This document shows, in pieces, positions 2,094 through 53,291 of a stretch of 64,000 bases of DNA. Each line of letters opens with the position of its first letter. Positions within the stretch are counted from its first letter, which is position 1. The position numbers and the translations under genes were made by a program. The notes beneath the pieces were generated by a model, which had not been told where the DNA came from, did no database searches, and saw only the letters and a program-made list of their open reading frames with translations. Origin of the DNA: Deltaproteobacteria bacterium (GTDB taxonomy: Bacteria > Myxococcota_A > Polyangia > HGW-17); contig JAFGWM010000053.1 in the NCBI GenBank assembly GCA_016937155.1, positions 15,495 through 79,494 on the forward strand. The letters are read 5' to 3'.

Positions 2094-3929
2094 ATGTATT
2101 ACATCTATTTTATCATTTCTTTTGTTACGGCTCTTAACTCAACCACTTATTCTGAGCGTCTTAATGCAGCATATAAAAATAACGAGATCTCATTGAGAGA
2201 GAGGATAGATTTTGCTGAAAATGCCCTTAAAAACCCTAAGCTGCTTCCAGATAAATGGAAAAATATTCTTTATTCAAATCCAGTGATGCCCTGGGAAGGC
2301 ACATCACTGCTGGTTGAAGCATTTCAGTTGAGAATGCTGAATAATCTGAAGGCCGACTATACAATGCCTGCTGAACTGGAATTTCATCTGGACAGCGGAA
2401 ACTATCCAATCAGAGTGTATTATTCCAATGCATCACAGGAACAGCTTGCCCAGAGTGTTCTTCTTGCTGCTGATTACAGCTGGCAAGTGGAAATTGAAGA
2501 GTTTGGTTTTTATGCACCACCTATTGTTACCCCGGAGGGACGTTACAGAATATATATCGCCGACACAGGAATGGGTGGAGGTGGATATACTGCTCCTATC
2601 AGCGATTACCCTGACACCCTCAGAGATGACTGTGTAACTTACATTTACATTGATCCGAGCAATGACCCGATGACATCTGAAGGCGTAGTTGCCCATGAAT
2701 TGAATCACAGTATGCAGGCATCGATGGATTGCATTGAAACTACGGCCTTCTGGGAAAATACTGCCACATATATGATGCTGGCGGTATATCCTGACACTTC
2801 TTACTATGTGGGGTATTTTGCTGAGCCTTTTCAGGGTAATCCCTGGATGAGCCTGAGCGATGGTGGTCAGAATGATTACTACTGGTATGGCGGTTATCTC
2901 TGGCCTTTATGGCTTTCAGAGCATTATACCGGTGATTTTCAGGATGCAACCCTTATAAGGAAAATATGGGAGGATTCGATTCAGGAAAGCAACTTCTCGA
3001 ATAACTCTCCAAATTACATGGAAGCAATTGATTCAAATCTTCAGGCGGATCACAATGAGACCCTTGTGGATGCATTCAGAAAGTTCAATGTTGCCAGATA
3101 CTTCACCGGATACAATTACATAAGCGGCAAAACTGATTTACCCTTCGCCGAGGATGCTTACTATTACCCGGAATACACATCGGTAATATATTTGGATGAA
3201 ACTTTTTCTAAAACGCCTACCACCACTTTACCTAAAAAGTTCGGTGTAAATTATTATCTGATTGGTAATCCCGGAAATTATTCGCGTGAAACTGTGATCC
3301 GACTCACACCTGCCAGAAATCCTGAAGAATGGAGTATGCAGCTGGTTTCCAAGGAGACCGGTGTTGAAAATCTATACTCTTCACCCGCTGATGATGCTCA
3401 CATTATAATTCTGAATCCGTCAGATACGGGTGAAGCAGTTCTGATTGTTGAAAGAAACGGAGGAACAGACTTTGATCCCGATTCAATTGGCAGCTCATCA
3501 AGTTATACTTTGGATGTTTATCCTGAAATACCTCCCCCTGAAATTACGATGATCATGCCTCAAAGCGCTTTTAATGAATCCACAGAAACTGTTTCCGTTT
3601 TTGGAGAAAATTTTGATGAAAATACAGTTTTAACATTCAGTCCAGGAACAGGTATTAGTGTTGAAAACTGTACTCTGGAAGGAACCACAAGGATAAACTG
3701 CACTTTAATAATGGATGAAACTGCTCTTGGCCCTCAGGATGTAGTTATATCAACTGTTCTTGACGAAGTAACTTTAGAAGACGGTTTTACAGTAATGGAG
3801 AATACAGAGACCGATTCATCATCTTCCGGTTGCAGTTGTTCCAGTACTACTTCCGGACCTTTGAAAAACAATATAATTATGATGCCACTGCTTATGCTTA
3901 TGGCATTCATTTTAAGGAGGCGTTTATAA
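2094..3929 (+). CDS. Secreted HExxH zinc-metalloprotease-like protein with IPT/TIG-like domain and Cys-box C-terminal sorting tail (paralog A)
   Basis: 611 aa. N-terminal hydrophobic signal/anchor, HELNH motif (VVAHELNHSMQ), and a late beta-sandwich-like segment (PPPEITMIMPQ...VSVFGENF...). Tail is GCSCSSTTSGPLKNNIIMMPLLMLMAFILRRRL. Confidence 0.7.
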   Translation: MYYIYFIISFVTALNSTTYSERLNAAYKNNEISLRERIDFAENALKNPKLLPDKWKNILYSNPVMPWEGTSLLVEAFQLRMLNNLKADYTMPAELEFHLDSGNYPIRVYYSNASQEQLAQSVLLAADYSWQVEIEEFGFYAPPIVTPEGRYRIYIADTGMGGGGYTAPISDYPDTLRDDCVTYIYIDPSNDPMTSEGVVAHELNHSMQASMDCIETTAFWENTATYMMLAVYPDTSYYVGYFAEPFQGNPWMSLSDGGQNDYYWYGGYLWPLWLSEHYTGDFQDATLIRKIWEDSIQESNFSNNSPNYMEAIDSNLQADHNETLVDAFRKFNVARYFTGYNYISGKTDLPFAEDAYYYPEYTSVIYLDETFSKTPTTTLPKKFGVNYYLIGNPGNYSRETVIRLTPARNPEEWSMQLVSKETGVENLYSSPADDAHIIILNPSDTGEAVLIVERNGGTDFDPDSIGSSSSYTLDVYPEIPPPEITMIMPQSAFNESTETVSVFGENFDENTVLTFSPGTGISVENCTLEGTTRINCTLIMDETALGPQDVVISTVLDEVTLEDGFTVMENTETDSSSSGCSCSSTTSGPLKNNIIMMPLLMLMAFILRRRL

Positions 3930-5746
3930 TGCTGGTGGCAATTCTTATTTTCAGCCTGATTCAGTCAACAACGTGGATTGAAAAGCTGCAGGATGATTTT
4001 TATTCCGGGAAAATATCACTGGATGAAAAACTGGATATACAAAGGAGAGCTGTTGTATCACCAGAGACTCTTCCGGAAAAATGGCGTGAAATTATTAAAA
4101 AATATCCAGCTGAAATGCAGAGTGCAACACCACTACTTGTTGATGCATTCCAAAAATCCAGAATTCCAAAGGCTTACAATATGCCTGATCCTATGGCTTA
4201 TTATCTTGACAGTGTAATATACCCAATCAGGGTTTATTATTATCAGGAAAGTCAACTTGAACTAGCCACCTCGGTTTTAGAAGCTGCAGATGAAAGCTGG
4301 ATGAAAGAAATTGATGAGTTTGGTTTTTATGCACCTCCCATAACAACCCCTGAAGAAAAATATCGGATTTTTATCATGGGTGCCAGCGGTGCCAGTGGCT
4401 ATACTTCACCCATTGGAAGCTATGATGAAACACCATGGGATGATTGTGTCACTTACATAGTAATCGAAGAAAACTCATATCCACAGATGGCCAAATCAAC
4501 TGTAGCACACGAGTTAAGCCATGCCACTCAGGGTGCTATGGATTGCATGGAGCCCGTTGTGTTTTGGGAAAACACAGCAGTATTTACTGAAATTGCTGTT
4601 TATCCTTCAATTATTGGATGGATGAGATATTACGCCCAGTATTTTCAGGAAAGTCCCTGGTGGTCGATAAGTGAAAACGAAACCCCTTACTGGTATGGTG
4701 GTTTTTTATGGCCTCTTTTTCTGGCTGATAAATTCGGCTCAGGACCCCATGATGGAAATTTCGTTCAGGAAATCTGGGAAAGAAGCATGCAGGAAACTGG
4801 AAATTCCACAAATGATCCCAATTATATGGAGACAATTACCGAAATGATAGAGGAAGGAGGCTCAACTCTGGATGAGGCCTTTACTCTTTTCAGTGTAGGA
4901 AGATTTTTTGTAGGAAGTGATACCAGCAGTGGGTATGAAATAATTCCATTCTCGGATCAACTTGATCTCAGTGTTCCAATACAAAAAACAATTTATGTTG
5001 ATGAGGAAACTACATACGAACCACCATCATCAGAAAGACCAAAGCCGTATGGAATAAATTATTTCAGACTCAGAAGCGATTCACTTAACAGACCCACAAC
5101 AATTGAATTAAAGGAAGAATCCGAAGTGAATTCATGGCAGCTTACCCTTGCACCAATAAATGGCTCAATTGAGGATATTATTTCATCTTCTTCAACTGAG
5201 AAGGGTAGTGTATCCATAGAATTTGATCCCTCAGAAACAGGGGATATGTTATTGCTTGTTATTAATAAGGGCAAAGACTCCTTTAGTTTTAATTCCGTGC
5301 CTGTTTATGGAACAGATTATCAGTTGACAGTCAGACCAACAGTTCCCCTTCCGGAAATAAGTACTGTTCTTCCTCAAACTGTTGAAAGTGGAAGTAAAGT
5401 TACCGTGACGGTTTTCGGTTCTGATTTCATTGAAGGTGCAACGGTGGAATTTTTTCCGGCGGATGATATTGAAATTACAAATATAAACTTCATCGACAGC
5501 TCCAAAATGGAAATTACCCTGGTTACACCGGAAGATACCGTTCCCGGAGTGCGTCAGATTACCGTTATCAATCCTGATGAAGGTCAGGGTTCTCTGGCCA
5601 GCGGACTCAACTTTGTTGATCCTGTGAAATACTCCACTCAGCCAGGAAGCGGATGTTCTTCCAGCGGTGAAAATAACTCTTCAGATCCATCTATACTCCT
5701 TATTTTCACGCTGATGACTTTTTTAATATTCAGAAGAAAAATCTGA
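3929..5746 (+). CDS. Secreted HExxH zinc-metalloprotease-like protein with IPT/TIG-like domain and Cys-box C-terminal sorting tail (paralog B)
   Basis: Start re-set to ATG 3929 (TAATG overlap with the upstream stop, AAGGAGG at 3914-3920), giving MLVAILIFSLIQ signal. HELSH motif (TVAHELSHATQ). Collinear similarity to paralog A along the whole length. Tail is GSGCSSSGENNSSDPSILLIFTLMTFLIFRRKI. Confidence 0.7.
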   Translation: MLVAILIFSLIQSTTWIEKLQDDFYSGKISLDEKLDIQRRAVVSPETLPEKWREIIKKYPAEMQSATPLLVDAFQKSRIPKAYNMPDPMAYYLDSVIYPIRVYYYQESQLELATSVLEAADESWMKEIDEFGFYAPPITTPEEKYRIFIMGASGASGYTSPIGSYDETPWDDCVTYIVIEENSYPQMAKSTVAHELSHATQGAMDCMEPVVFWENTAVFTEIAVYPSIIGWMRYYAQYFQESPWWSISENETPYWYGGFLWPLFLADKFGSGPHDGNFVQEIWERSMQETGNSTNDPNYMETITEMIEEGGSTLDEAFTLFSVGRFFVGSDTSSGYEIIPFSDQLDLSVPIQKTIYVDEETTYEPPSSERPKPYGINYFRLRSDSLNRPTTIELKEESEVNSWQLTLAPINGSIEDIISSSSTEKGSVSIEFDPSETGDMLLLVINKGKDSFSFNSVPVYGTDYQLTVRPTVPLPEISTVLPQTVESGSKVTVTVFGSDFIEGATVEFFPADDIEITNINFIDSSKMEITLVTPEDTVPGVRQITVINPDEGQGSLASGLNFVDPVKYSTQPGSGCSSSGENNSSDPSILLIFTLMTFLIFRRKI

Positions 5747-20683: not shown

Positions 20684-23446
20684 TCAATTCAGAAAGGATT
20701 GTCTTTTTCTTATCAGGAAAAGACCAACAGCAAATATTACCACTAAAGATAATTCATGTCCCACTGGGGTTTTTGTACCTGGAACATTTTTACAGTGACA
20801 GCCGATTACGGTTTCGGTTTTACAATCATAGTTTTCCTCACAACTGTCAGAATCATTACCAGCATCATCAGCATCGGTCCCTGTATCCTCAGTATCTGTG
20901 CCTGCATCAGGAATTAAAGGAGGATAAACACCAAAATAATCTGTAACTGCTTCCATAATATCTGACTGAATATCCTCTTCGATTATGTTTTCAAATGGAA
21001 ACCCCAGAGTCAGAACTCCACCGGACTCATTTACTTCATAAAGCAGCCCGGCAGTGGTCCCTGATGAAAAAGTAACAACAGTTGATCCATCCGGTAGCGG
21101 AGTGATAACATTCATATCACCAGGATAATACCCCTCACTTTCACCATCATTCAGCGTTGAACCTGAAATTCCAGCAAAAATTCCAGCACCAGACATTCCT
21201 ATACTGAAATCTGTGGTATCAACTGTGTATGATTCCGCACCAATAAAAGCCAGTAGATCATTTCTGCCTGATACATAGAAGTCTTCCAGAAGATTTGAGC
21301 CTGAAATAAACAGATTTCCACCAGTAGCAACATATGTGCTCAAATCATCCCACAGATAATCAGGAAATTCATTTTGTCCTCTACCATTTACTACATCAAT
21401 AAGCTCATATCTGGTCAGATCGACTTCGCCACTGATATATTTCTCCAGGGATATGGTATCAAATACAAGATCATTCCTTCCCAAAGCCCTTGCATGTGAA
21501 GTGAACCCATCTCTGAAATCGTACATTTCACGCAAAAGCATTCGATGAACCAGAGATGTATACCCCAGATCCTGTTTAATATTAAGCGCTTCTCCAAGAG
21601 CAGTAAATGCATCGATTATCAGAATATTCGCACTTCCTGTGGGACTCACCCCGACGGCTACCGGAGGACTTATTATACTTTCACCGCCACTGTTAACGCT
21701 GCTCACCCTGATATATAGAACCTGTCCGGACACAAGACCAGTAAGATCCATAGATGTTTCAGAGGTAAACACACCCTCTCCCCAATCTCTCTCTACAGGA
21801 CTTATATATACTCTATATCCTTCAGGGGCACTACCTCCAACGGGATCCTCCAGTGGAGGATTCCAACTGATCCTGACACCGGATTCAGAATTAAAAACAC
21901 TTACTCCATTTACAGGCTCAGGAGGAAGAACTGCCTGATAACCATCACGCTGTGCAAAATATTTGATAATCGCATGACAAGCCGCCCGCCCTGCAATATA
22001 TCTTTCAGGAGCCCTTCTGTAATAAATCATGTCCTGAGCGCTGTCGTGAAACAGCGCCTCCACAAGTGCTGCAGGAACATCACTGTCATGATAAGACGGA
22101 TTGATTTCTCCGAAGTAGGCGCTTCTAACACCACGGTCATACCATGGATTTTCATAGTGAACATTGAATGCGCTAACCATCTGGCTTTGAACAAGTGCTG
22201 CAAACTCATCACTTCCTGCCGTTCCCATCCCAGGAGTATATGTTCCATCCGGGGGATTTGATGAATAAACATAGGTTGAAGTACCCCGTCCACCACCTGC
22301 GTTTGTATGCCATGAGAAATAAACACTGTCTTCACCGGTTTCATGAATCCAGGCGGCAAGTCTTGATCGGCAACTTACATCATCATTATTATCCTCACTT
22401 GATGAATTCCAGACTGTGGAGGGCGCACCTGAAAACTGGGCATGATAACGACAGCATTCTTCATATCTGGGTTTCTGACTGGTGCCACCCCCTCTGTCCC
22501 ACAAACCCCTTCCACCACCAATACGAACCGCATCCAGACTAACCTGTGCGTTTGATGAACTGTATTCGCTGTCATTTGCAACCGCAATACTGCCGATTGA
22601 TGAATTTACTCCCTTTTTGAACCAGAACCGTCCCAGTAAAACCCATGTTGCGCCATGATGTCTCTGATCAACCCTGAAATGAGTCTGTCCCCCGGGATGG
22701 TTCACGATATAGTGAGCATCCGGAGCACGCTCTGAGTAGGATGTATAACTGATATAGACATTATAATAGGAACTGACGGGCACGTTAAAGGTGTAAACAG
22801 CCCTCGCTGTTTCCTGAGCAGAAGTATCCATAAGTCTGTTGGTTCCCTCTTCAAAGGGATTCGTACCGTCAGACAGTGGTGGTTCAACCCAGCCGAATGA
22901 TTGAAGAGAGCTATTTGAAAAAAGTCCCGAGTCCCCTGTTTCAATATATGTCCCTCTGTCAGGATTTGCCTCCATATCATCGTTATCTACAACCACCATA
23001 AAATCCGTGAGATCAATTTCTCTTACAGGCACCACATATGCACCACTTCTCCAGAGACAAGGCACCAGAAACTGGTTAACTGTCTCCGCATTTGATAAAT
23101 CCTCAACAACACCTTCACTGAGTCCCCTTTGAGTGGTCCATCTGGTTCCTGTCCAGTACCATCCATGACCTGGTGAAACATAAATACTTTTTCCGGCAAG
23201 AGCCCCCTCATCAGAAGAAAACAACGATTTTGAAAATTCAGGACGAACTCGTCTGACGACTGAACCGACTCTCTGGTCTGGTCTTTCCCATGGTCTTTGA
23301 GGAACTTTATCAAGTCCTTCCACTCCTCTGATATTTTCACCTGCAAGCCCTGTAATATCAGCATTTTTATCTGCCACACTGCTTGTGCTGTCAAAAATAA
23401 ACGAAAAAATAATAATAACCGAAAATAATGAAAGGATTGTTTTCAT
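20684..23446 (-). CDS. Secreted N-acetylmuramoyl-L-alanine amidase-like (Amidase_3-type, split by a large insert) protein with FN3 domain, alpha/beta C-terminal domain and Cys-box sorting tail
   Basis: Start set to MKTILSLFSVIII (ATG 23446, GGGAG upstream). Amidase_3-like blocks YVSPGHGWYW, FSWHTNAGGGRGTSTYVY, ALVEALFHDSAQD. FN3-like GVRISWNPP...GYRVYISP...YIRVSSVN. Tail is GCHCKNVPGTKTPVGHELSLVVIFAVGLFLIRKRQ. Confidence 0.6.
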   Translation of the reverse strand: MKTILSLFSVIIIFSFIFDSTSSVADKNADITGLAGENIRGVEGLDKVPQRPWERPDQRVGSVVRRVRPEFSKSLFSSDEGALAGKSIYVSPGHGWYWTGTRWTTQRGLSEGVVEDLSNAETVNQFLVPCLWRSGAYVVPVREIDLTDFMVVVDNDDMEANPDRGTYIETGDSGLFSNSSLQSFGWVEPPLSDGTNPFEEGTNRLMDTSAQETARAVYTFNVPVSSYYNVYISYTSYSERAPDAHYIVNHPGGQTHFRVDQRHHGATWVLLGRFWFKKGVNSSIGSIAVANDSEYSSSNAQVSLDAVRIGGGRGLWDRGGGTSQKPRYEECCRYHAQFSGAPSTVWNSSSEDNNDDVSCRSRLAAWIHETGEDSVYFSWHTNAGGGRGTSTYVYSSNPPDGTYTPGMGTAGSDEFAALVQSQMVSAFNVHYENPWYDRGVRSAYFGEINPSYHDSDVPAALVEALFHDSAQDMIYYRRAPERYIAGRAACHAIIKYFAQRDGYQAVLPPEPVNGVSVFNSESGVRISWNPPLEDPVGGSAPEGYRVYISPVERDWGEGVFTSETSMDLTGLVSGQVLYIRVSSVNSGGESIISPPVAVGVSPTGSANILIIDAFTALGEALNIKQDLGYTSLVHRMLLREMYDFRDGFTSHARALGRNDLVFDTISLEKYISGEVDLTRYELIDVVNGRGQNEFPDYLWDDLSTYVATGGNLFISGSNLLEDFYVSGRNDLLAFIGAESYTVDTTDFSIGMSGAGIFAGISGSTLNDGESEGYYPGDMNVITPLPDGSTVVTFSSGTTAGLLYEVNESGGVLTLGFPFENIIEEDIQSDIMEAVTDYFGVYPPLIPDAGTDTEDTGTDADDAGNDSDSCEENYDCKTETVIGCHCKNVPGTKTPVGHELSLVVIFAVGLFLIRKRQSFLN

Positions 23447-44204: not shown

Positions 44205-44487
44205 TTCTATTGCTCCTAATAAATGAAATAATTACAAACAAATAATCTTTCTGACAGAATGACTTCGTGAAACCATCCTCAGTTCAGAGTGCATCTATAT
44301 ACCTGAATGAGTTTAATTTACAACCTTTTTTTGGATTTCAGGGATGGAAATTCTGATTTTTTTTGTTTTCCGGAAACAGAGATTTTTCATGAATTTATTC
44401 ATAAAAGTCTGACATTTTTTTTCTTATCTGAAAATTAAATCTGATGCAGAAAATGTGGAAGTGACTGTAACGAAAAGTTTTTTCTCA

Positions 44488-45186
44488 CTATTTAAAAGTA
44501 CAGGTACCAGCACTGCCAAGATTTTCTTCAAGAAGGTAATCACAGGAATCAGTGGTTCCAGTGACATAAATATCATTACAGGTAAGTTCCAGAGCCTCAA
44601 CACTCAGAGCTTCAGCACAGAAACTGAGATCTTCAAGTAAAACTTCGTCTTCAGCATAAGATGCATACTCATCAAGACATGTGGTTGCAGTTGTACAGTC
44701 GTCATAGCATCCTTCAAGCCAGTCAGCATAATAGTCACATACTATATAACCGCAGTCTTCAGCACAGTTTATTTCATCCTCGTCAGTATCACAGGTTTCG
44801 TCACCACAATAGCTTGCAACAACACAGTCAGCAGGGCATGTTTCTTCATCCTCGTCAGTATCACAGGTTCCATCGCCACAGTATGGATCTACAGTACAAA
44901 CTACACCAAGATAATCAACGCCCAGATCAACACATTCCTGTACAGTGGTACTCCAGTCGGCACATCCTGCACTTACAATGATGTCACTGCATTCATCAAG
45001 GTCCATCTGGATATCAACCGGGAGATCAAGATAGTTGTCTTCACATGCGACACTCACTGAACAGTTATCACAGCTTGAAAGCCATGCGTCATAATTGTCA
45101 CATGTGATTACAGCATCCGAAGTATCTTCACAGCTGATTACAAACATAGAAAGCAAAAGTGAACCAATAAGCATAAATCTCTTCAT
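44488..45186 (-). CDS. Acidic Cys-rich lipoprotein with duplicated CGD(G/E)TCDTDEDE-x2-C-x2-DC module
   Basis: 232 aa. Signal with lipobox VISC. Many Cys and Asp/Glu. PYCGDGTCDTDEDEETCPADC and SYCGDETCDTDEDEINCAEDC in tandem. Confidence 0.6.
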   Translation of the reverse strand: MKRFMLIGSLLLSMFVISCEDTSDAVITCDNYDAWLSSCDNCSVSVACEDNYLDLPVDIQMDLDECSDIIVSAGCADWSTTVQECVDLGVDYLGVVCTVDPYCGDGTCDTDEDEETCPADCVVASYCGDETCDTDEDEINCAEDCGYIVCDYYADWLEGCYDDCTTATTCLDEYASYAEDEVLLEDLSFCAEALSVEALELTCNDIYVTGTTDSCDYLLEENLGSAGTCTFK

Positions 45187-45306
45187 AATAATCCTCCTGT
45201 TAAAAAGTTAGACCCGAAATAAACCGGGATAGAGATATATTGTCTTTTATCACAAATAAGAAAAAAAGCAAATAACAGGGAGCCAGACTAAGCTTGAAAG
45301 AGAGTC

Positions 45307-47334
45307 TTAAAACAACTTCCGAAAGAGCAAAAGAAAGACTCCTAACATCATAAGTAGTGTATTACCGGCAATTTGCCTGTTGTCACCAGCGTTATTACAT
45401 GAGCATCCTGTATCTTCAGATGTTGTATCACTCATTGAATAAGCATCAACGTAGTAACACAAAGTAAGAGAAGCGCAATCAGGGTCATCACAATCAACCT
45501 TGCCGTCACCGTCATCATCAATATAATTCAAACAATTCTCACCGGCTACATTCTCACAATATACACTGGACTGACAGTCAGCATCTTCACAGTCAGTGAA
45601 GCCGTCACCATCGTTATCATTTCCGTCCATACACATTTCTTTTCTGGGAGCACAAAGCGATGAAGAAATACATTTCACATCATCACAATCAACCCGACCA
45701 TTTCCGTCATCATCTACACCATTTCCGCAGACCTCTTTAACACTGTTGCATAGTGCTGTAGCGAAACAGTCGGCATCATCACAGTCAGCCTTCATATCTC
45801 CATCGTCATCGATGTAGTTATCACAGATTTCAGTACGAGTTGTACAAACCTGATTAAAGAAGCAATCGGCATCATCACAGTCAACCGCATTGTCACCATC
45901 ATCATCAATACCATTGTCACAGATTTCAATGTCTTCAGCTATACAGTTCATCGCTGTTTCGCAATTTGGGTCATCACAATCAGTCAAACCATCAAGATCA
46001 TCGTCAATATTATTATCACAAACTTCTGTTGTAGGGCTGGTACCCTGACAGGTTATTGTAAGAGTATAGGCACCAGGATTTTCATAAGTTTCCACGAAAA
46101 GATAACTGGTAAGACCATCTGTTGTAAATGTCAGAGATTCCTGAACTCCAGCATTGTTTAAGGATGAATCCACACATGATGTAGGAGAACAACTGCCTTT
46201 AATAAGCAAAAGATCCAAATCCAGACTCGAACCTGACAAATTCAAAGTGGCAGTTACAACTGTTCCCGAAGGAACTCCAACCCTGTAAACATTTTCCGGG
46301 CCGCTTTCACTATAACCGTTTGTACACACATCAGGATAACCTGTATAAGCATTCCCTCCAGTGACTGTTGTCCCTGAAACTGTGTCACCACAGGAAATAT
46401 CCGTTTTCATAGAACAGGCATCGATAATGCAGTCACTTGATGTGGCACAGTCTGAGTCATCGCAATCCACATCCCCGTCTCCATCATCATCAGTACCATT
46501 GGAGCAATCCTCAAAATCACTTCCGGTAATCCCATTTATAAAAGAAGAAAATTTATCCACTTTTGTACTCACACCAAAATAATCACATTCATCATAAGAG
46601 TTGAGAAGCACATATGATGACACCCCTGCCACGTATTCGCTACCACCTCTGGTAACAAAAGCAGGACCTCCACTGTCACCGGAACATATTCCGCCATCGG
46701 TATCCATCCTTATTCCCAGCGTTGAGGGCGGCATATTAACATATCCCACACCTGAAATATTGTATGAACACTGGGAAGAGCCGTCACAGATAGCAACCGG
46801 CGGTCTGGTGATTGTAAGTTTCGTACCACTGGAACCGGTTTCGGTAACACCAAACCCTACGTACTGAAGAGGAGTGACATTAACATCACTGCTTGTAATA
46901 GCACTGGCTGGAGGCAGAGGCGGTATAGGAGTGACACTTGATGGAGCTGAGGAGCTCAGTGTAAGTACTGATATATCATTTGTAAGTGCAGATTCATCAT
47001 ATGAAGGATGCACTGTAACAGCACTTACATTTCTTGAGTCCCAGAAACCGCCATTCACAGTGTTTCCGAAAAGAACCTGCATACTTGATGGAGAGCTTGC
47101 ACAGTGTCCTGCTGTGAGTACATGGTAGGGAGTAATGAGAGTTCCTGTGCAGGCACTTCCGTATCCCCCACCGGCATCAATTTCAATGTAAACAACTGCC
47201 TGGTGTTCAGTTGAAGTATCGGGTTCTCCGTACAAAATGTACCCATCAATGTACACAATCCCCTTTTGTTCCTCATGAGTGCATGAAAACATAACTGACT
47301 GAATTAAAAGAATAAAAATTGATATATACTTCAT
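45307..47334 (-). CDS. Trypsin-like (S1) serine protease lipoprotein with PPC-like domain, 7 Cys/Asp-rich repeats and Cys-box sorting tail (paralog 1)
   Basis: Lipobox VMFSC. Triad contexts LTAGHC, NDISVLTL, GDSGGPAF. PPC-like ...LDLDLLLIKG...YTLTITC. Repeats C-x-N-G-x-DDDGD-x3-DC-x-D-x-DC. Tail GCSCNNAGDNRQIAGNTLLMMLGVFLLLFRKLF. Confidence 0.8.
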   Translation of the reverse strand: MKYISIFILLIQSVMFSCTHEEQKGIVYIDGYILYGEPDTSTEHQAVVYIEIDAGGGYGSACTGTLITPYHVLTAGHCASSPSSMQVLFGNTVNGGFWDSRNVSAVTVHPSYDESALTNDISVLTLSSSAPSSVTPIPPLPPASAITSSDVNVTPLQYVGFGVTETGSSGTKLTITRPPVAICDGSSQCSYNISGVGYVNMPPSTLGIRMDTDGGICSGDSGGPAFVTRGGSEYVAGVSSYVLLNSYDECDYFGVSTKVDKFSSFINGITGSDFEDCSNGTDDDGDGDVDCDDSDCATSSDCIIDACSMKTDISCGDTVSGTTVTGGNAYTGYPDVCTNGYSESGPENVYRVGVPSGTVVTATLNLSGSSLDLDLLLIKGSCSPTSCVDSSLNNAGVQESLTFTTDGLTSYLFVETYENPGAYTLTITCQGTSPTTEVCDNNIDDDLDGLTDCDDPNCETAMNCIAEDIEICDNGIDDDGDNAVDCDDADCFFNQVCTTRTEICDNYIDDDGDMKADCDDADCFATALCNSVKEVCGNGVDDDGNGRVDCDDVKCISSSLCAPRKEMCMDGNDNDGDGFTDCEDADCQSSVYCENVAGENCLNYIDDDGDGKVDCDDPDCASLTLCYYVDAYSMSDTTSEDTGCSCNNAGDNRQIAGNTLLMMLGVFLLLFRKLF
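45457..46020 (-). repeat. Array of six ~31-34-codon Cys/Asp-rich coding repeats in protease paralog 1
   Basis: CDNNIDDDLDGLTDCDDPNC, CDNGIDDDGDNAVDCDDADC, CDNYIDDDGDMKADCDDADC, CGNGVDDDGNGRVDCDDVKC, CMDGNDNDGDGFTDCEDADC, CLNYIDDDGDGKVDCDDPDC. Confidence 0.85.
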
Positions 47335-47430
47335 TAGACACCTCGAATAAGAGATTCAGAATACAATTTCTTAGCACTTTATGAAAAGACTTGCCATAAA
47401 TGAGTTCATAAATCTGCAAATAAATTTTTT

Positions 47431-47961
47431 TTAATTATCTGACCGGTGAATTTCAAGAGCAGTATCAAGTTTGCCATCAATTAAAACGGCACTTCTGAAG
47501 AAAATACTTCTCCTGCCGTCGCATTCCGGTTCCCACACTGCCATGGCTTTGAATGATTTCCTCAAATCCGTTGATGTATTTTCAAACCTATATCTGAAAA
47601 GATGAGGTTTTTCAATTGAGAATCTCAGATCCTTCCAGCTCCCCGTCTCCCATTGAAAGGGATCATAAGACAGAAAATCAGTACCTCCGGGATTACAAAA
47701 AGATGGTTTGGAGTTTTTGCAGCAGCGTATCGAGGGAGTAAGTTCTGTGGATGGGGGAAACCAGGGCATTTCTATTTTTCCGTCAACATTCTTCAAAATT
47801 GCTCTATTGGAATGTATTGCAGCACCTTCATATATTCTCCGCAGATTCACTGGAACTTCAGCAAAGCGAACAGATTTTTTCCAACTTGCTAAAATAACAG
47901 TTGTAAGCAAAACACAACTGAAAACAATTAAAGAAGATATAAGGATCTGAAGTCTGGTCAT
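47431..47961 (-). CDS. Pilin-domain paralog lacking the prepilin cleavage/methylation motif
   Basis: 176 aa, collinear with the pilin at 16626-17183. AEVPVNLRRIYEGAAIH vs [19 protein letters not shown]...C vs CC...C. WETGSWKDLRFSIEKPHLFRYRF vs [32 protein letters not shown] vs DCDGTYSLF. The N-terminus is MTRLQILISSLIVFSCVLL, with no G|F(T/M)xxE. Confidence 0.65.
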   Translation of the reverse strand: MTRLQILISSLIVFSCVLLTTVILASWKKSVRFAEVPVNLRRIYEGAAIHSNRAILKNVDGKIEMPWFPPSTELTPSIRCCKNSKPSFCNPGGTDFLSYDPFQWETGSWKDLRFSIEKPHLFRYRFENTSTDLRKSFKAMAVWEPECDGRRSIFFRSAVLIDGKLDTALEIHRSDN

Positions 47962-48138
47962 TTTATCCTCGGAATATCAGGAAAACCTCTGATGAACAAA
48001 TCTAATTAACCCTGAAATTCCCACTACAGGATTAAAATCAGGAAAAAACCTCAACCAATTTTTTATCTCCGTTTCAGATCGGTTGCAAATATAAAATAAA
48101 TAAAGTAATTAATTCTATCTGGAGAACTTGAGCCACCA

Positions 48139-48951
48139 ATGAAAAAACTTTGGACGATTCTTGAAAATATTTCTGATGCCTTTTACAGGCCTTTTTTCTC
48201 ATTTCTTGAAGAACTGGGAAATATTTTCTCGTTGTTCATGACAAGTCTTGCATGGCTTTTCAGACCTCCATTCAGAGCCTCACTTCTGGTTCAGAATATG
48301 GATTTCATCGGACTGGGCTCCATTGGTATCGTTGCACTTGTGGCTTCTTTCACTGGAGCTGCTTTTTCACTACAGACAGTATATACGTTTAAACTTTTTC
48401 AGGCTGAAGCATATATTGGTGTAACCGTAGCTCTTTCTCTGTCCAAAGAACTTGCCCCGGTTCTTACAGCTTTGATGGTAACTGCCCGTGCCGGAAGCGC
48501 AATGGCCACTGAACTTGGCTCTATGAGAATAACTGAGCAGATCGATGCCATGCATACCATGGCAGTGAGTCCAATGCAGTACCTGGTTACGCCTAGAATT
48601 CTTGCAAGTATCATAATGATGCCATTCCTTACCATGGTATTCAATCTGGTGGGTATTTTAGGTGCAACTTTTGTAGCTGTAAATGTCATGGGAGTTGATG
48701 AAGGCCCCTACTGGCATAATATTTTCTGGTTTATTGATGCAAAAGACCTGTTTGAAGGTATTATCAAGGCTGTTTTCTTTGGTGCCGCATTTTCCACGAT
48801 TGCTTGCTATCAGGGGTTTTACGCAAGTGGAGGTGCTGCAGGTGTTGGAAGAGCCACCACAAGAGCTGTAGTGAGGGCAAGCGTGACTATACTGTTTCTT
48901 GATGTTGTACTCACAGACATCCTGTTGCTGGTTTTCAGGACTTCAAACTGA
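48139..48951 (+). CDS. mlaE: MlaE-family ABC transporter permease
   Basis: 270 aa. Characteristic ELGSMRITEQIDAM and CYQGFYASGGAAGVGRATTRAVV blocks. Confidence 0.88.
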   Translation: MKKLWTILENISDAFYRPFFSFLEELGNIFSLFMTSLAWLFRPPFRASLLVQNMDFIGLGSIGIVALVASFTGAAFSLQTVYTFKLFQAEAYIGVTVALSLSKELAPVLTALMVTARAGSAMATELGSMRITEQIDAMHTMAVSPMQYLVTPRILASIIMMPFLTMVFNLVGILGATFVAVNVMGVDEGPYWHNIFWFIDAKDLFEGIIKAVFFGAAFSTIACYQGFYASGGAAGVGRATTRAVVRASVTILFLDVVLTDILLLVFRTSN

Positions 48952-48964
48952 AAACGCCAGGAAA

Positions 48965-50974
48965 TCAATTACTCTGTCTGCTTTCAATCTCTGATTTTTT
49001 CGATTCATAAAGTTCGCTCTGATAAGACCATCTTCCCATCAAATCCTCAAGCTTACTTTGATTTTCCTTGAATTCCCTGAGCATATCAGGAAATTCAGGT
49101 CTGGAAAATGATTCAGGATCTGCCATTGATTTCTCAAGATAATCCTGACGTTCCTCCATATCACCTATTCGTTTTTCCAGTTCTGCAATTTTTTTCTTGA
49201 TAGGGCCTGTTTCCCTCAGAAGAATTTCACGAAGCTTCGCTTCCTTTTTTCGCCTGTCAGATTTTGTTGCCTTCTTTCTGTTTTCATCAGAAGTAATGAT
49301 TTCTGAAATGCCCGATGTCTTTTGCTGTGACAAACCTTCAACAGGGATAAAAACCCTGCTTTGATCCCTTAAGTGCAGGTGTTCATTATACTCTGAGAAG
49401 TTCCCTGGAAAAATGGATAGTGTATTGTCATTTATCTCCCATATTTCATTAGCAAGGTTATCAAGAAAACTTCTGTTATGCGAAACGAACAAAATAGTTC
49501 CATCATACTGTGCAAGAGCCTGTAAAAGTGCCTCAGAGCTTTCCAGATCAAGGTGATTTGTCGGTTCATCAAGGAGCAACACGTTCCCTGGATTTACAAG
49601 AAGTTTAGCCAGAGCGACCCTTGCTTTTTCTCCACCACTTAGCACCTTAATGAGTTTATCTGCATCTTCACCCTTGAAAAGAAAGGCCCCAAGAATATTT
49701 CTTACCATAGTTTCCCCTAGTGAAGGTGCAATCATCCTGACTTCTTCCACAATGGTTTTTGAAATATCCAGCGCCTGAGCCTGATGCTGTGCATAATAGC
49801 TCAGTTTTACACCTGAGCCTTCAAGTATTTTTCCTGTATCAGGTTTTAGCTCACCTGCAATAATCCGGAGAAGTGTAGTCTTGCCGGTACCGTTAACCCC
49901 AACAATTCCTATTTTCCGCCCTCTGCTGACAACATGAGAAATTCCTTTATATAACTGATTAGTTCCAAATGATTTACTTATTTCCTCAAGAACAATTGCT
50001 CTGTCACCACATCTTGCAGGCTTGGGAAATCTGAAAACAAAATGCTCCTCATATTCGAGAGTTTCAACTTCATCCAGTTTTTTAAGAAACTTTGCCTTGC
50101 TCTTAGCCTGCCTTGCTTTAGTGGCCTTGGCTTTAAACTTCTCTATAAAATTTTCCAGTTGCTTTCTTTCTTTTTCAACGTTCCTTCTTCTGTTTTCAAG
50201 GATCTTTTCCTCCTCTTCCCTGAGAAGCCTTGATTGAGTATAATTCCCTTTGTACTGCCGGAAACCCTCAGGTTCTAGTGCAAATATCCTTTTCACATGC
50301 CTATCAAGAAAATCACGATCGTGAGAAATCATTATCATTGTTTTTTTATACGACGACAAATATTGATCAAGCCAGGTCAGTGAGGGCAAATCCAGATGAT
50401 TGGTGGGTTCATCCAGTAACAGAAGATCAGGCTTCATAAAAAGAAGGGAAGCAAGATGAATTCTCATCTTCCACCCCCCACTGAATTCATCAATTTTCCT
50501 GTTGAAATCAGTTATTTTAAAGCCAAGCCCCATAAGAATCATTTCTGCCTCGTGGGGAGAGTATAAATTTTCGTTATTTATAAGTTCCTCGTGAAACTCA
50601 GCCAGCTCATGGGCCAGATTTTCTATTATATTTTCATTGACTTCAATTTTTAGTTGATTTTCCAGCAAATAAATTTTCTCACGAATCTCTTCAGTATTCG
50701 TATGGTTACTCATAACATGTTCAATAACAGTTTTTTCCGATGAGAATTCCATCTCCTGAGGGAGATAACCCATAAGTGAGTTCTTTGCCATATGAACTTC
50801 ACCGCTGTCAATAGTCTGTTCTCCCCTGAAAATTTTGAACAATGTTGTTTTTCCACGGCCATTTGCTCCTGTGAGACCTATATGATCTCCAGAAGTAACC
50901 TGAAGTGAAAGATTGCTAAAAATTTCCCTGGAACCAAATGAAAGACATACATTGTTGAGAGTAAGTAGTGACAT
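48965..50974 (-). CDS. ABC-F family ATPase (two ABC cassettes, coiled-coil linker and tail)
   Basis: Start set to MSLLTLNNV (ATG 50974). Walker A GANGRGKTT and GVNGTGKTT. Signatures FSGGWKMR and LSGGEKAR. No TM domain. Confidence 0.88.
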   Translation of the reverse strand: MSLLTLNNVCLSFGSREIFSNLSLQVTSGDHIGLTGANGRGKTTLFKIFRGEQTIDSGEVHMAKNSLMGYLPQEMEFSSEKTVIEHVMSNHTNTEEIREKIYLLENQLKIEVNENIIENLAHELAEFHEELINNENLYSPHEAEMILMGLGFKITDFNRKIDEFSGGWKMRIHLASLLFMKPDLLLLDEPTNHLDLPSLTWLDQYLSSYKKTMIMISHDRDFLDRHVKRIFALEPEGFRQYKGNYTQSRLLREEEEKILENRRRNVEKERKQLENFIEKFKAKATKARQAKSKAKFLKKLDEVETLEYEEHFVFRFPKPARCGDRAIVLEEISKSFGTNQLYKGISHVVSRGRKIGIVGVNGTGKTTLLRIIAGELKPDTGKILEGSGVKLSYYAQHQAQALDISKTIVEEVRMIAPSLGETMVRNILGAFLFKGEDADKLIKVLSGGEKARVALAKLLVNPGNVLLLDEPTNHLDLESSEALLQALAQYDGTILFVSHNRSFLDNLANEIWEINDNTLSIFPGNFSEYNEHLHLRDQSRVFIPVEGLSQQKTSGISEIITSDENRKKATKSDRRKKEAKLREILLRETGPIKKKIAELEKRIGDMEERQDYLEKSMADPESFSRPEFPDMLREFKENQSKLEDLMGRWSYQSELYESKKSEIESRQSN

Positions 50975-51035
50975 GGGGGGCACCATAATTGAAAAAAAAT
51001 GAAAATAAAACCGGAAAATCTCTATCCTCAGCTTG

Positions 51036-51041
51036 TATAAT
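51036..51041 (+). promoter_or_regulatory. Candidate -10 hexamer (TATAAT, preceded by TG) for protease paralog 2
   Basis: cTTGTATAATg lies 46 nt upstream of ATG 51087. No convincing -35. Confidence 0.3.
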
Positions 51042-51086
51042 GCCCGAAGGTGTGGAAAATTGTCAAAAGTTGAAAAGGAGTGTGAC

Positions 51087-53177
51087 ATGAAAAACATTTT
51101 TTCTTCGGTTATTTTCCTGACTTTTCTTTCATTTTTTGCGTCATGCCAGGAAAATCAACCATTAAACACTGAAACAATATCCACCAACAGACCGATATTT
51201 TATGGTGATCCTGACACCAGCACAGCACATAAAGCAGTCGTTTATCTTGAATCGAATACAGGATTTTCATGCACTGGAACTGTCATTGCACCTACGTGGG
51301 TACTCACCGCAGGACACTGTGTTGAGGGCGTTAGCAGCATAGATGTGAAGATAGGAAATTCAAGTTATTCTTATGATTACTCAGTCGCAAGTGTAGATAT
51401 AATACAGCATCCCAACTATGTGGGAACAAGTCAGAACATATACAACGACATTGCACTGATTGAGCTTGAATCTGATGTATCCTCAGTTCTCAATCCTATT
51501 CCAATTTTACCTCCTTCACTTGCCATCTCTGATTCTGATGAAAGAAGCACAATGCTTGAATTTGTAGGGTACGGATTGACTGAAACATATTCAAGTGGAG
51601 TGAAACTTACAGTTGATCACGTTCTCGGAGATCAGTGCTCATCCTCAAACTATTGTAGCATCCAGACTTCACCTTACAGCATACCACCAGGAAGTATAAG
51701 TTATGGACAAAATGGCGGAGGTCCCTGCAGTGGTGACAGTGGAGGTCCTGCATTCGTTGTGAGATCAGGTACTGAGTATGTCGCCGGAGTAACCAGTTAC
51801 GGTGATGAGGACTGTCTGGTTTATGGTGTATCAACAAAAGTTGATTACTTTTATAATTGGATTACTTCATATACAGGAACAACAACATCCACCGAGAACT
51901 GTACCAATGGCACTGATGACGATGGAGACGGGGCTGTGGATTGCAGTGACAGTGATTGTTTTTCAAATTCTGCATGCCAGACAACTGAGAATGCCTGTGG
52001 AAACACAATCACTTTAGGCTGTGGAGACAGCGTATCCTCTTCAACTGCAACCGGAGCTTATACCGCTTATACTTCCTATAATTGCCTTGATGGTTGGACA
52101 GAAGATGGTCCTGAGCGGATTTATGAGTTACTTCTGAATACCGGGGCAGATGTCACAATTACCCTGAGCAGCGGTTCCACAAATGATCTTGATTTGCTTA
52201 TCCTTGAGGGAAATTGTGATACAAACTCGTGTGCTACTGGAAGTGTAGAGGATGCCGGCGTGGACGAGGTACTTTCTTTCCCTTATGACGGTTCATCAAC
52301 ATTATATGCAGTTGTTGAAACATTTCAGAATGCAGGTGATTTCACACTTACAGTAGAATGCGACGGTGGTGAAGTTCAGGAAAACTGCACTAACGGAACT
52401 GATGATGACGGTGACAATATGGTGGACTGTAATGATCCTGATTGTTCACAGCATTCAAACTGCACTACAACAGGAGAAAACTGTACCAACGGTGTTGATG
52501 ATGATGGTGACAATATGGTGGACTGCAATGATCCTGATTGTCAGACAAATGCCAACTGTATAACAAATCCTGAAAACTGCACTAATGGAGTTGATGATGA
52601 CGGCGATGGAGCTGTTGACTGTGATGATGCTGACTGTGTAACTCTCAGTTCATGTACTGAAAGAGTTGAAGACTGTACCAATGGTATTGATGATGATGGT
52701 GATGGGGCTGCTGACTGTGACGATGTTGACTGTGCAAACAATGCCAACTGCTCAGGTACTATCTCAGAAAACTGTTCAAACGGTATTGACGACGACGGTG
52801 ATGCAAAAATTGACTGCAATGACAGTGACTGCAGAACTTTCAGTGCATGTCAGGCACCTGTTGAAATCTGTTACAACGGTACTGATGATGATGGCGACGG
52901 ACTAACTGACTGTAATGACAGTGACTGTGCCTCCTATGTTGGATGTGGAATGAGCGGTGGTGAAATATGCTATAACGGTATTGATGATGATGGCGACGGT
53001 AAGACAGACTGTGGAGACAGTGATTGTGCAAGTTACTCAAAATGCAGCAATTACAATTCCTCTAGCGATGACGGTGGCTGTTCTTGTTCAAATGCCGGTT
53101 CAAACGTACCCCCTGAAAATTATTTTTTCATTATCATTCTTCTTATAGGATTGGCATCCACAAGAAAACTCATCTGA
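51087..53177 (+). CDS. Trypsin-like (S1) serine protease lipoprotein with PPC-like domain, 8 Cys/Asp-rich repeats and Cys-box sorting tail (paralog 2)
   Basis: Start set to MKNIFSSVIF (ATG 51087, AAAGGAG upstream). Lipobox FFASC. LTAGHC, NDIALIEL, GDSGGPAF. PPC-like ...NDLDLLILEG...FTLTVEC. Tail GGCSCSNAGSNVPPENYFFIIILLIGLASTRKLI. Confidence 0.8.
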   Translation: MKNIFSSVIFLTFLSFFASCQENQPLNTETISTNRPIFYGDPDTSTAHKAVVYLESNTGFSCTGTVIAPTWVLTAGHCVEGVSSIDVKIGNSSYSYDYSVASVDIIQHPNYVGTSQNIYNDIALIELESDVSSVLNPIPILPPSLAISDSDERSTMLEFVGYGLTETYSSGVKLTVDHVLGDQCSSSNYCSIQTSPYSIPPGSISYGQNGGGPCSGDSGGPAFVVRSGTEYVAGVTSYGDEDCLVYGVSTKVDYFYNWITSYTGTTTSTENCTNGTDDDGDGAVDCSDSDCFSNSACQTTENACGNTITLGCGDSVSSSTATGAYTAYTSYNCLDGWTEDGPERIYELLLNTGADVTITLSSGSTNDLDLLILEGNCDTNSCATGSVEDAGVDEVLSFPYDGSSTLYAVVETFQNAGDFTLTVECDGGEVQENCTNGTDDDGDNMVDCNDPDCSQHSNCTTTGENCTNGVDDDGDNMVDCNDPDCQTNANCITNPENCTNGVDDDGDGAVDCDDADCVTLSSCTERVEDCTNGIDDDGDGAADCDDVDCANNANCSGTISENCSNGIDDDGDAKIDCNDSDCRTFSACQAPVEICYNGTDDDGDGLTDCNDSDCASYVGCGMSGGEICYNGIDDDGDGKTDCGDSDCASYSKCSNYNSSSDDGGCSCSNAGSNVPPENYFFIIILLIGLASTRKLI
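52386..53045 (+). repeat. Array of seven ~31-33-codon Cys/Asp-rich coding repeats in protease paralog 2
   Basis: CTNGTDDDGDNMVDCNDPDC, CTNGVDDDGDNMVDCNDPDC, CTNGVDDDGDGAVDCDDADC, CTNGIDDDGDGAADCDDVDC, CSNGIDDDGDAKIDCNDSDC, CYNGTDDDGDGLTDCNDSDC, CYNGIDDDGDGKTDCGDSDC. The first two units share long identical nucleotide runs. Confidence 0.9.
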
Positions 53178-53291
53178 TACATCACACCGCTATTGACTAC
53201 AGACAACCAATAATATAACCAGTAGAGCGTGTTACAGTCTTGTTAAAAAATGGATTGAATTCAAGATTTGGACAGAGAGCACTGGTGAAAA

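Follow-up and report, generated by a model that had tools for sequence, protein, structure and literature searches.

Why would a serine protease carry a lipid-anchor signal at its N-terminus and, on the same polypeptide, a Cys-based sorting tag at its C-terminus? The question is raised by a 64,000-nucleotide stretch of DNA, hereafter the window, from an uncultured myxobacterium (Deltaproteobacteria bacterium, assembly GCA_016937155.1, contig JAFGWM010000053.1, positions 15,495 to 79,494), in which two neighbouring genes encode chymotrypsin-fold proteases with both elements. Gene A (45307-47334, minus strand) is an open reading frame (ORF) of 675 residues, and gene B (plus strand) is one of 696 residues extending from the ATG at 51087 to 53177. 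The listed ORF of gene B opens with a TTG at 51033, the ATG being the likely start. A Shine-Dalgarno sequence stands 7 nucleotides before each ATG (GAGG for gene A and GGAG for gene B). We propose, with a probability of roughly 0.5, that proteins A and B are surface zymogens lipidated at both ends, that a lipid-bearing activation peptide would be removed from them, and that the enzyme would be kept on a C-terminal stalk.

The two proteins align from end to end with 43% sequence identity and differ by one repeat unit. Their common layout consists of a signal peptide with a lipobox, a disordered linker of 14-16 residues, an S1A protease domain, one acidic four-Cys repeat, a PPC β-sandwich, six (A) or seven (B) further repeats, and a tail composed of G-C-S-C, a transmembrane helix and R-K. 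The ORFs, Pfam and NCBIfam searches and pattern checks bore out every item of the domain layout that a first-pass annotation had drawn up for both S1 paralogs. Positions 44400-53300 are also covered, with zero differences, by an independent Logan contig assembled from the DNA run of a freshwater metagenome, and the repeat array is thus no assembly artefact.

Lipobox and C-terminal tail on the same protein

Both proteins begin with a Sec-type signal peptide, in which a basic n-region and a hydrophobic core precede the lipobox. In protein A, the signal peptide (MKYISIFILLIQSVMFS|C, residues 1-18, 47281..47334, minus strand) ends in VMFS|C18, and in protein B (MKNIFSSVIFLTFLSFFAS|C, residues 1-20, 51087..51146, plus strand) in FFAS|C20, both of which match the PROSITE-type lipobox rule. 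We aligned 40 homologs with 38-68% identity to A (alignment A1), among which the lipobox Cys18 is invariant amid variable surrounding residues. Of 75 S1 relatives with a complete N-terminus, 70 have a lipobox-type Cys, and four of the five exceptions are truncated or miscalled starts still showing [AG]-C. A second, independent sample, taken from species-representative genomes searched with a protease-only profile, gave a lipobox Cys in 63 of 71 loci. Position -1 of the lipobox is Ala, Gly or Ser without exception and 33 of 60 relatives have Leu or Phe at -3, which points to the signal peptidase II type and is poor for signal peptidase I. Both A and B are hence predicted lipoproteins as judged from their sequences.

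The C-terminal tails of A (DTGCSC...NTLLMMLGVFLLLF-RKLF, residues 641-675, 45310..45414, minus strand) and B (DDGGCSC...FFIIILLIGLAS-TRKLI, residues 662-696, 53070..53174, plus strand) were identified by the tail pattern and, for B, by the alignment to A. Each tail consists of G-C-S-C, about 10 polar residues, a hydrophobic helix, predicted at residues 657-674 of A, and R-K, and this tripartite organization is found in nearly all relatives. We assign the tail of A to a diverged MYXO-CTERM type. The curated MYXO-CTERM model TIGR03901 (cut-off 20) is passed by the orthologs P0046 (22.8 bits) and P0079 (27.1 bits) at the same alignment position, and among the 40 aligned homologs it matched 14, and the second curated model, TIGR03382, matched two (E ≤ 0.01). 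Neither A nor B matched a GlyGly-CTERM model, their signature being G-C-S-C instead. Against NCBIfam, the isolated tails and N-termini gave a single match, to the tail of a phytase that depends on myxosortase, and this was below threshold (E 0.18).

More than 100 relatives combine the lipobox with the C-terminal Cys tail. The first-pass annotation had noticed the two elements together in both S1 paralogs, and the invariant Cys in alignment A1 as well as the counts of 70/75 and 63/71 establish the combination as real and conserved in the family; the pairing is not due to chance. The annotation had also considered the pairing unusual for MYXO-CTERM cargo, which agrees with the comparison proteins. 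The window contains five tail-bearing ORFs, and a lipobox is found in none of the three other than A and B, whose signal peptides lack any Cys. As a control, we searched exhaustively with one of the metalloproteases of the window: 67 of 150 representatives of this family carry the tail, and a lipobox-like N-terminus is present in 3 of these 67.

Protease domains with the chymotrypsin fold

The S1A protease domain of A comprises residues 33-270 (46525..47238, minus strand) and that of B residues 37-265 (51195..51881, plus strand). Both domains match the Pfam family Trypsin (PF00089, cut-off 20.6), with E 4e-26 and 92.7 bits for A and E 2e-29 and 103.2 bits for B. Each has a complete catalytic triad, A with His77/Asp120/Ser221 and B with His77/Asp121/Ser218, whose residues follow the canonical order within the motifs TAGHC, NDI and GDSGGP. 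Searches of the Protein Data Bank (PDB) with the sequence of protein A matched elastase, protein C and VesB (E 1.6e-11 for VesB). The AlphaFold2 model of the protease domain of A has a predicted local distance difference test score (pLDDT) mostly >90, and a Foldseek search with the model of A returned VesC (6bqm) and VesB (4lk4) at the top, matching across several domains. The target TM-scores of 0.73-0.81 to solved S1A enzymes indicate the double β-barrel fold of chymotrypsin.

In the numbering of chymotrypsin, Ile33 of A is the equivalent of Ile16 and Asp220 that of Asp194. Together with Cys18, Gly36 and the Asp of the triad, these two residues are invariant in alignment A1, and the His and Ser of the triad and the first Cys of the tail (Cys644) are conserved in at least 90% of the homologs. 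Asp189 of the trypsin pocket is missing: Gly occupies the equivalent position in both proteins and in 86 of 87 relatives, which argues against Arg/Lys specificity of A and B. The term "trypsin-like" used in the first-pass annotation, and already part of the NCBI name of the relatives ("trypsin-like serine protease"), is therefore correct for the fold, as judged from Pfam, Foldseek and the triad, but not for the S1 pocket with its Gly instead of Asp at position 189. At position 216, A has Val but B has Gly, and the two paralogs therefore probably differ in specificity.

The linker preceding the protease domain

Between the lipobox Cys and the protease domain lies a variable linker, which comprises residues 19-32 in A (47239..47280, minus strand), ending in ...DGY before Ile33, and residues 21-36 in B (51147..51194, plus strand; placed by alignment with A), ending in ...NRP before Ile37. 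The pLDDT is <50 across residues 15-33 of A. Among the relatives, the Cys-to-Ile distance is 10-20 residues (15 in A and 17 in B), with a linker that varies in sequence. In the Pfam Trypsin alignment, I33-L-Y-G36 of A and I37-F-Y-G40 of B fall on profile positions 1-4, which correspond to the IVGG at the N-terminus of active enzymes of the chymotrypsin family. Two classes can be told apart by the residue preceding the Ile: it is aromatic (Y/F/W/H) in the relatives nearest to A, e.g., DGY|I, EPF|I and DSW|I, and Arg-Pro in the B type and many other relatives, e.g., NRP|I and GRP|I.

Activity of S1A proteases depends on a free α-amino group of Ile16 that pairs with Asp194. For this reason, the linker looks like a putative activation peptide that starts at the lipobox Cys and would thus bear the lipid. 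Of the two options left by the first-pass annotation, attachment at both ends or sequential processing, the latter is favoured, as the linker following the lipobox Cys stops exactly at the invariant Ile16 equivalent.

Chymotrypsinogen offers a precedent for a Cys at this place: its first residue is a Cys, located 15 residues before Ile16 and linked to Cys122 by a disulfide. A and B resemble it in that their signal peptide is directly followed by a Cys, about 15 residues ahead of the Ile16-type residue, but they lack the partner Cys, and their Cys is found in a lipobox context. The 43 Cys residues of A comprise 40 within domains, in even numbers, in addition to Cys18 and the two Cys of the tail, and the position equivalent to Cys122 lies in a Cys-free, Pro-rich stretch. 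A disulfide of the Cys1-Cys122 kind was ruled out because there is no conserved partner Cys, and a disulfide tether between the activation peptide and the enzyme is unlikely as far as the distribution of Cys residues indicates.

PPC domain and acidic double-disulfide repeats

The first repeat follows the protease domain (residues 275-302 of A, 46429..46512, minus strand; residues 270-297 of B, 51894..51977, plus strand). Between the first and second repeats, we identified a PPC-type β-sandwich of about 125 residues containing six conserved Cys (residues 305-431 of A, 46042..46422, minus strand; residues 300-427 of B, 51984..52367, plus strand). With the Pfam model PF04151 (cut-off 25.9), protein A scored 22.7 bits as the full protein and 27.0 bits as the isolated domain. 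The domain of B scored 18.9 bits, below the cut-off, and is assigned by its alignment to the PPC domain of A. The β-sandwich of A is modeled with a pLDDT of 90-98, and its Foldseek match to the PPC domain of the Bacillus anthracis collagenase (5sv5) has E 1.4e-6, a TM-score of 0.76 and a root-mean-square deviation (r.m.s.d.) of 2.9. Further matches were the C-terminal domain of Tk-SP and the collagen-binding domain of ColG.

The remaining repeats form an array of six tandem units in A (residues 437-626, 45457..46026, minus strand) and seven in B (residues 432-653, 52380..53045, plus strand), to which we refer as the stalk. All repeats belong to the NCBIfam family NF033662, "acidic double-disulfide repeat" (cut-off 41), with 7 units and 152.7 bits in A and 8 units and 223.5 bits in B. 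Every unit in A and B has the spacing C-x13-C-x4-C-x5-C, i.e., four Cys per about 32 residues. From 925 units in 120 proteins we derived the consensus E-x-C-x-N-G-[IVL]-D-D-D-G-D-G-x-[VIT]-D-C-x-D-x-D-C-x5-C, the core of which, D-x-D-x-D-G-x-[VIT]-D-x-x-D, is compatible with a DxDxDG calcium loop. Such loops are common to EF-hands, dockerins and thrombospondin type 3 repeats. With the 40 homologs as input, AlphaFold2 gave a mean pLDDT of 83 for full-length A and 88.8 for residues 270-640, the stalk having 80-93. Given the consensus, it is plausible that the stalk binds calcium and is rigid.

The repeats had been likened in the first-pass annotation to TSP_3 or MopE motifs. Pfam TSP_3 (PF02412) and Cu-binding_MopE (PF11617) matched neither the full proteins (E ≤ 0.1) nor the stalks or a single repeat (E ≤ 10), and the family to which the repeats actually belong is NF033662. 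EF-hand and dockerin were likewise rejected as the identity of the repeat, since Pfam searches with the stalks and the single repeat returned noise. The likeness to thrombospondin type 3 repeats, EF-hands and dockerins is one of motif, namely the Cys-flanked core of the DxDxDG type, and the Cys spacing differs. CorA, a MopE homolog (4bz4), gave a weak fold match (TM-score 0.36). The significant Foldseek matches of this region were confined to the β-sandwich, and no PDB fold matched the stalk repeat. Our literature search found no paper mentioning the NF033662 family. The repeat module itself is not new, however, because it has already been curated under this accession.

Non-protease relatives with a lipobox and without a tail have repeats that begin directly after the lipobox Cys, and in the proteases the repeats adjoin the C-terminal tag. 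As they stand next to the lipobox or the tag in the respective proteins, the repeats appear to be adjacent to the anchored end, in the manner of a spacer. The repeat is not restricted to Myxococcota: by tblastn, arrays were also detected in metagenome-assembled genomes (MAGs) labelled Saprospiraceae (Bacteroidota), Planctomycetota, and Magasanikbacteria and Paceibacterota (Candidate Phyla Radiation, CPR), as well as in MAGs labelled Woesearchaeota and Nanoarchaeota (DPANN) and Methanosarcinales.

Proposed processing and alternative explanations

From the sequence features described above we infer the lipidation, the route and the cleavage as follows. A and B would be pre-pro serine proteases of the S1A type displayed at the cell surface of a Myxococcota bacterium. 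After export, the Lgt/LspA pathway would attach lipid to the N-terminal Cys and take off the signal peptide, and the resulting zymogen, with lipid holding it at each of its two ends, would be moved to the surface. A cut before Ile33 in A or Ile37 in B would release the linker as a lipid-bearing activation peptide, leaving a lipopeptide in the membrane and freeing the α-amino group for pairing with the Asp194 equivalent. The active protease would then be tethered by its C-terminus alone, on a disulfide-locked and probably calcium-loaded stalk of repeats, and the PPC domain would probably aid substrate binding or folding. A fuller version can be stated, in which A and B are natural double-lipid zymogens: the lipobox Cys and the MYXO-CTERM Cys would both be lipidated, possibly by one enzyme, with Lgt as the published lead candidate for the tail, the protein would reach the surface with both ends anchored, a lipopeptide of 14-16 residues would be cut off and remain in the membrane, and the calcium-stiffened stalk would swing the enzyme out. 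This version is tentative, and the odds lean somewhat against it.

Several observations weigh against the zymogen proposal. The tails of A and B miss both curated models, TIGR03901 and TIGR03382, even when searched as isolated tails with E up to 10. Their low-GC composition, rich in Lys, Phe and Ile, probably explains the missing match, and we read both tails as compositionally diverged MYXO-CTERM because the orthologous tails score against the curated model. No myxosortase/CPBP ORF (EExxxR and multiple membrane passes) was found in the 64 kb window or in 59 loci (L001-L059), an absence that says little since the window is only 64 kb of a genome. Genes for a type II secretion system (T2SS), Lgt/Lsp or Lol were likewise found nowhere in the window, and the neighbourhood therefore suggests no functional link. 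One metatranscriptome of the same study held no contig or transcript on the region, which is uninformative. The Arg-Pro|Ile of B is no obvious autocatalytic site, and the conservation of the Cys is hard to explain if the N-terminal lipid were simply discarded. Finally, the signal peptides may be read differently. In E. coli, myxobacterial enzymes with a predicted lipobox were handled as substrates of signal peptidase I (PMC13616975), and A-S-C|Q in B is formally a possible signal peptidase I site.

If signal peptidase I indeed cut near the Cys, the proteins would be no lipoproteins and, with a single C-terminal anchor, would be ordinary MYXO-CTERM cargo. The conserved Cys would then serve otherwise, for instance as a free thiol, in a short-lived disulfide or as a redox latch within the propeptide, to which Cys1 of eukaryotic chymotrypsinogen, 15 residues before Ile16 and paired with Cys122, offers a parallel. 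We hold this to be distinctly improbable. The large hydrophobic residues that prevail at -3 and the unvarying Ala, Gly or Ser at -1 agree with a lipobox and not with an AxA site, the Cys stays constant among variable neighbours, a conserved unpaired partner is lacking as described above for the stretch equivalent to Cys122, and the control cargo family manages without such a Cys.

Should both lipids be genuine, the conservation of the N-terminal Cys would be explained more easily by an anchor that is retained. In such a permanent double anchoring, both lipidated ends would stay, the tether of 14-16 residues would hold the protease near the outer membrane and the repeats would loop back, the enzyme being active without a free Ile N-terminus or acting only on membrane-proximal substrates. 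The two tags are co-conserved, and the N-terminal lipobox, as in PulA and InvL, and C-terminal tags represent two routes of surface retention for T2SS substrates (PMC13393428). However, the invariant Ile33, Gly36 and Asp220 are the signature of a need for a free Ile16-type N-terminus, VesB as the closest characterised analogue is inactive before its propeptide is removed, and the two class-specific patterns before the Ile are what one would find at a processing site. The repeats of the proteases, moreover, stand at the C-terminal side only, like the anchor-proximal repeats of the lipoprotein relatives. We thus consider permanent anchoring at both ends rather unlikely. To an arrangement spanning the envelope we give very little credence: here, Lol would place the N-terminal lipid in the inner leaflet of the outer membrane, the C-terminal helix would remain in the inner membrane, and the repeat stalk would cross the periplasm bearing a periplasmic protease. 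The length and probable stiffness of the stalk, the divergence of the window tails from the curated MYXO-CTERM model and the rarity of Lys at position +2 (2 of 60) would suit this arrangement. By the rule reported for Myxococcus xanthus, a rare +2 Lys would not favour inner-membrane retention. On the other hand, the orthologous tails pass the model of a tag which myxosortase cleaves and which sends proteins to the surface (PMC11980579), the closest counterparts in structure are enzymes secreted to the surface, and an unregulated broad protease would be harmful in the periplasm.

Genomic context and other genes of the window

The G+C content of the window is about 40%. Uncultured Myxococcota are the nearest relatives of the window, closest among them a saline-lake MAG with 70% identity, which has the same order of five genes, S1-B, ABC-F, MlaE, a 176-residue orphan and S1-A (L001, 3560-11998). 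In the window, the two protease paralogs accordingly flank genes for an MlaE permease and an ABC-F ATPase (45307-53177). The orphan (47431-47961, minus strand) lies 96 nucleotides upstream of gene A on the same strand and has an N-terminal membrane anchor. One homolog was found among 5.8 billion proteins, with 55% identity and at the syntenic position in the saline-lake MAG, and the protein appears from this search to be a lineage-restricted orphan. With this single homolog, no statement on a role as an inhibitor or chaperone is possible. Directly downstream of gene A, 44488-45186 (minus strand) encodes a predicted lipoprotein of 232 residues (MKRFMLIGSLLLSMFVIS|C), which is rich in Cys, Asp and Glu, contains the motif YCGD(G/E)TCDTDEDE..C..DC twice and has no match in Pfam or NCBIfam.

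Many Myxococcota MAGs contain three or four protease paralogs per genome. The best 80 of 185 genome matches are all MAGs, and the family is thus testable but so far without a cultured host. A scan for promoters and terminators gave counts equal to those of shuffled controls and was uninformative. The annotated neighbours in the window are housekeeping and regulatory genes, namely L19, RNase II-like, MlaE, ABC-F, Dtd-HD, Dus and Tol-type genes and kinases. Dtd-HD is a single ORF of 467 residues (53292-54695, plus strand) with an unusual fusion, in which residues 3-144 are a D-Tyr-tRNA deacylase domain and residues 271-369 an HD-domain region.

The three comparison cargo proteins are encoded elsewhere in the window. 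Two are MXAN_6640-like HExxH metalloproteases with ordinary signal peptides: the first (2094..3929, plus strand) has no Cys in its signal peptide and the tail SSGCSC...RRRL, and the second (3929..5746, plus strand) has no lipobox and the tail GSGCSS...RRKI, for which JDVT-CTERM gave a weak score of 17.3 bits that stays under the cut-off. The two genes are in tandem and share one base between the stop codon of the first and the ATG of the second (TAATG), and AGGAGG is found immediately upstream, an arrangement suggestive of translational coupling. The third is a protein of 920 residues with Golvesin_C and fn3 domains and the tail IGCHC...IRKR (20684..23446, minus strand), again without a lipobox. 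A predicted lipoprotein of 855 residues (LAGGVFG|C; 59247-61814, minus strand) contains an Asn/Thr-rich low-complexity stretch and several CGNG..E.CDG units, which weakly match TIGR02232 (Myxococcus cysteine-rich repeat) and are distinct from the repeat of the proteases.

Relation to known surface-sorting systems

As the best multi-domain fold matches of the model, VesB and VesC of Vibrio cholerae are the closest known analogues of A and B. They share the order of an S1A domain, a β-sandwich and a tripartite C-terminal sorting tail. VesB and VesC, however, rely on GlyGly-CTERM, rhombosortase and the T2SS, whereas A and B have the Cys signature of the MYXO-CTERM type in place of Gly-Gly. Unlike in VesB and VesC, the signal peptides of A and B end in a lipobox Cys, and the 7 or 8 acidic disulfide repeats are absent from the Vibrio enzymes. 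Trypsin-like specificity has been reported for VesB and VesC, in contrast to the Gly at position 189 of A and B.

Among MYXO-CTERM cargo of M. xanthus sorted by the myxosortase MrtX are TraA, MXAN_4924, MepA and a Tryp_SPc protein (PMC11980579), and the supplement of this study includes a trypsin-like protease among 35 cargo proteins. A and B resemble the M. xanthus cargo in the tripartite tail with a conserved Cys, in the many cargo proteins per genome and in the presence of hydrolases among them, but the model for M. xanthus cargo mentions "N-terminal signal peptides" only (PMC11980579), whereas the lipobox is conserved in the family of A and B. The words lipoprotein and lipobox are absent throughout an in-silico preprint on myxosortase. 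PulA and InvL, which are T2SS-dependent surface lipoproteins, likewise have an N-terminal lipobox on an enzyme reaching the outer surface, yet without a C-terminal sorting tag, so that their N-terminal lipid is the sole anchor, whereas A and B have both tags. The lipobox of PulA and InvL and the C-terminal tags have been treated as alternatives for surface retention of T2SS substrates (PMC13393428). The individual parts of A and B, i.e., the S1A domain, the PPC domain, NF033662 and MYXO-CTERM, are all known, but we could not find a description of the conserved pairing of a lipobox with MYXO-CTERM in the literature.

Implications

MYXO-CTERM has only recently been linked to its protease, myxosortase, and Lgt is the leading candidate for the enzyme modifying the Cys of the tail (PMC11980579). 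A large natural family with an Lgt/LspA site and MYXO-CTERM on one polypeptide is a ready test substrate. It poses the questions of whether both Cys receive the same lipid, in which order the two ends are processed, and whether the T2SS can transport a protein held by lipids at both ends. Should the Cys not be lipidated, the finding would reduce to an ordinary family of MYXO-CTERM proteases. If the double-lipid version of the proposal is true, A, B and their relatives would be the first class of cargo using the lipoprotein pathway and myxosortase together, and they would represent a lipid-latched variant of trypsinogen-type activation. If NF033662 repeats indeed form a calcium-binding rod, this would be a spacer module of wide use that has so far gone unstudied. 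The family suggests that a membrane-anchored activation peptide may be a new way of silencing a surface protease until its arrival.

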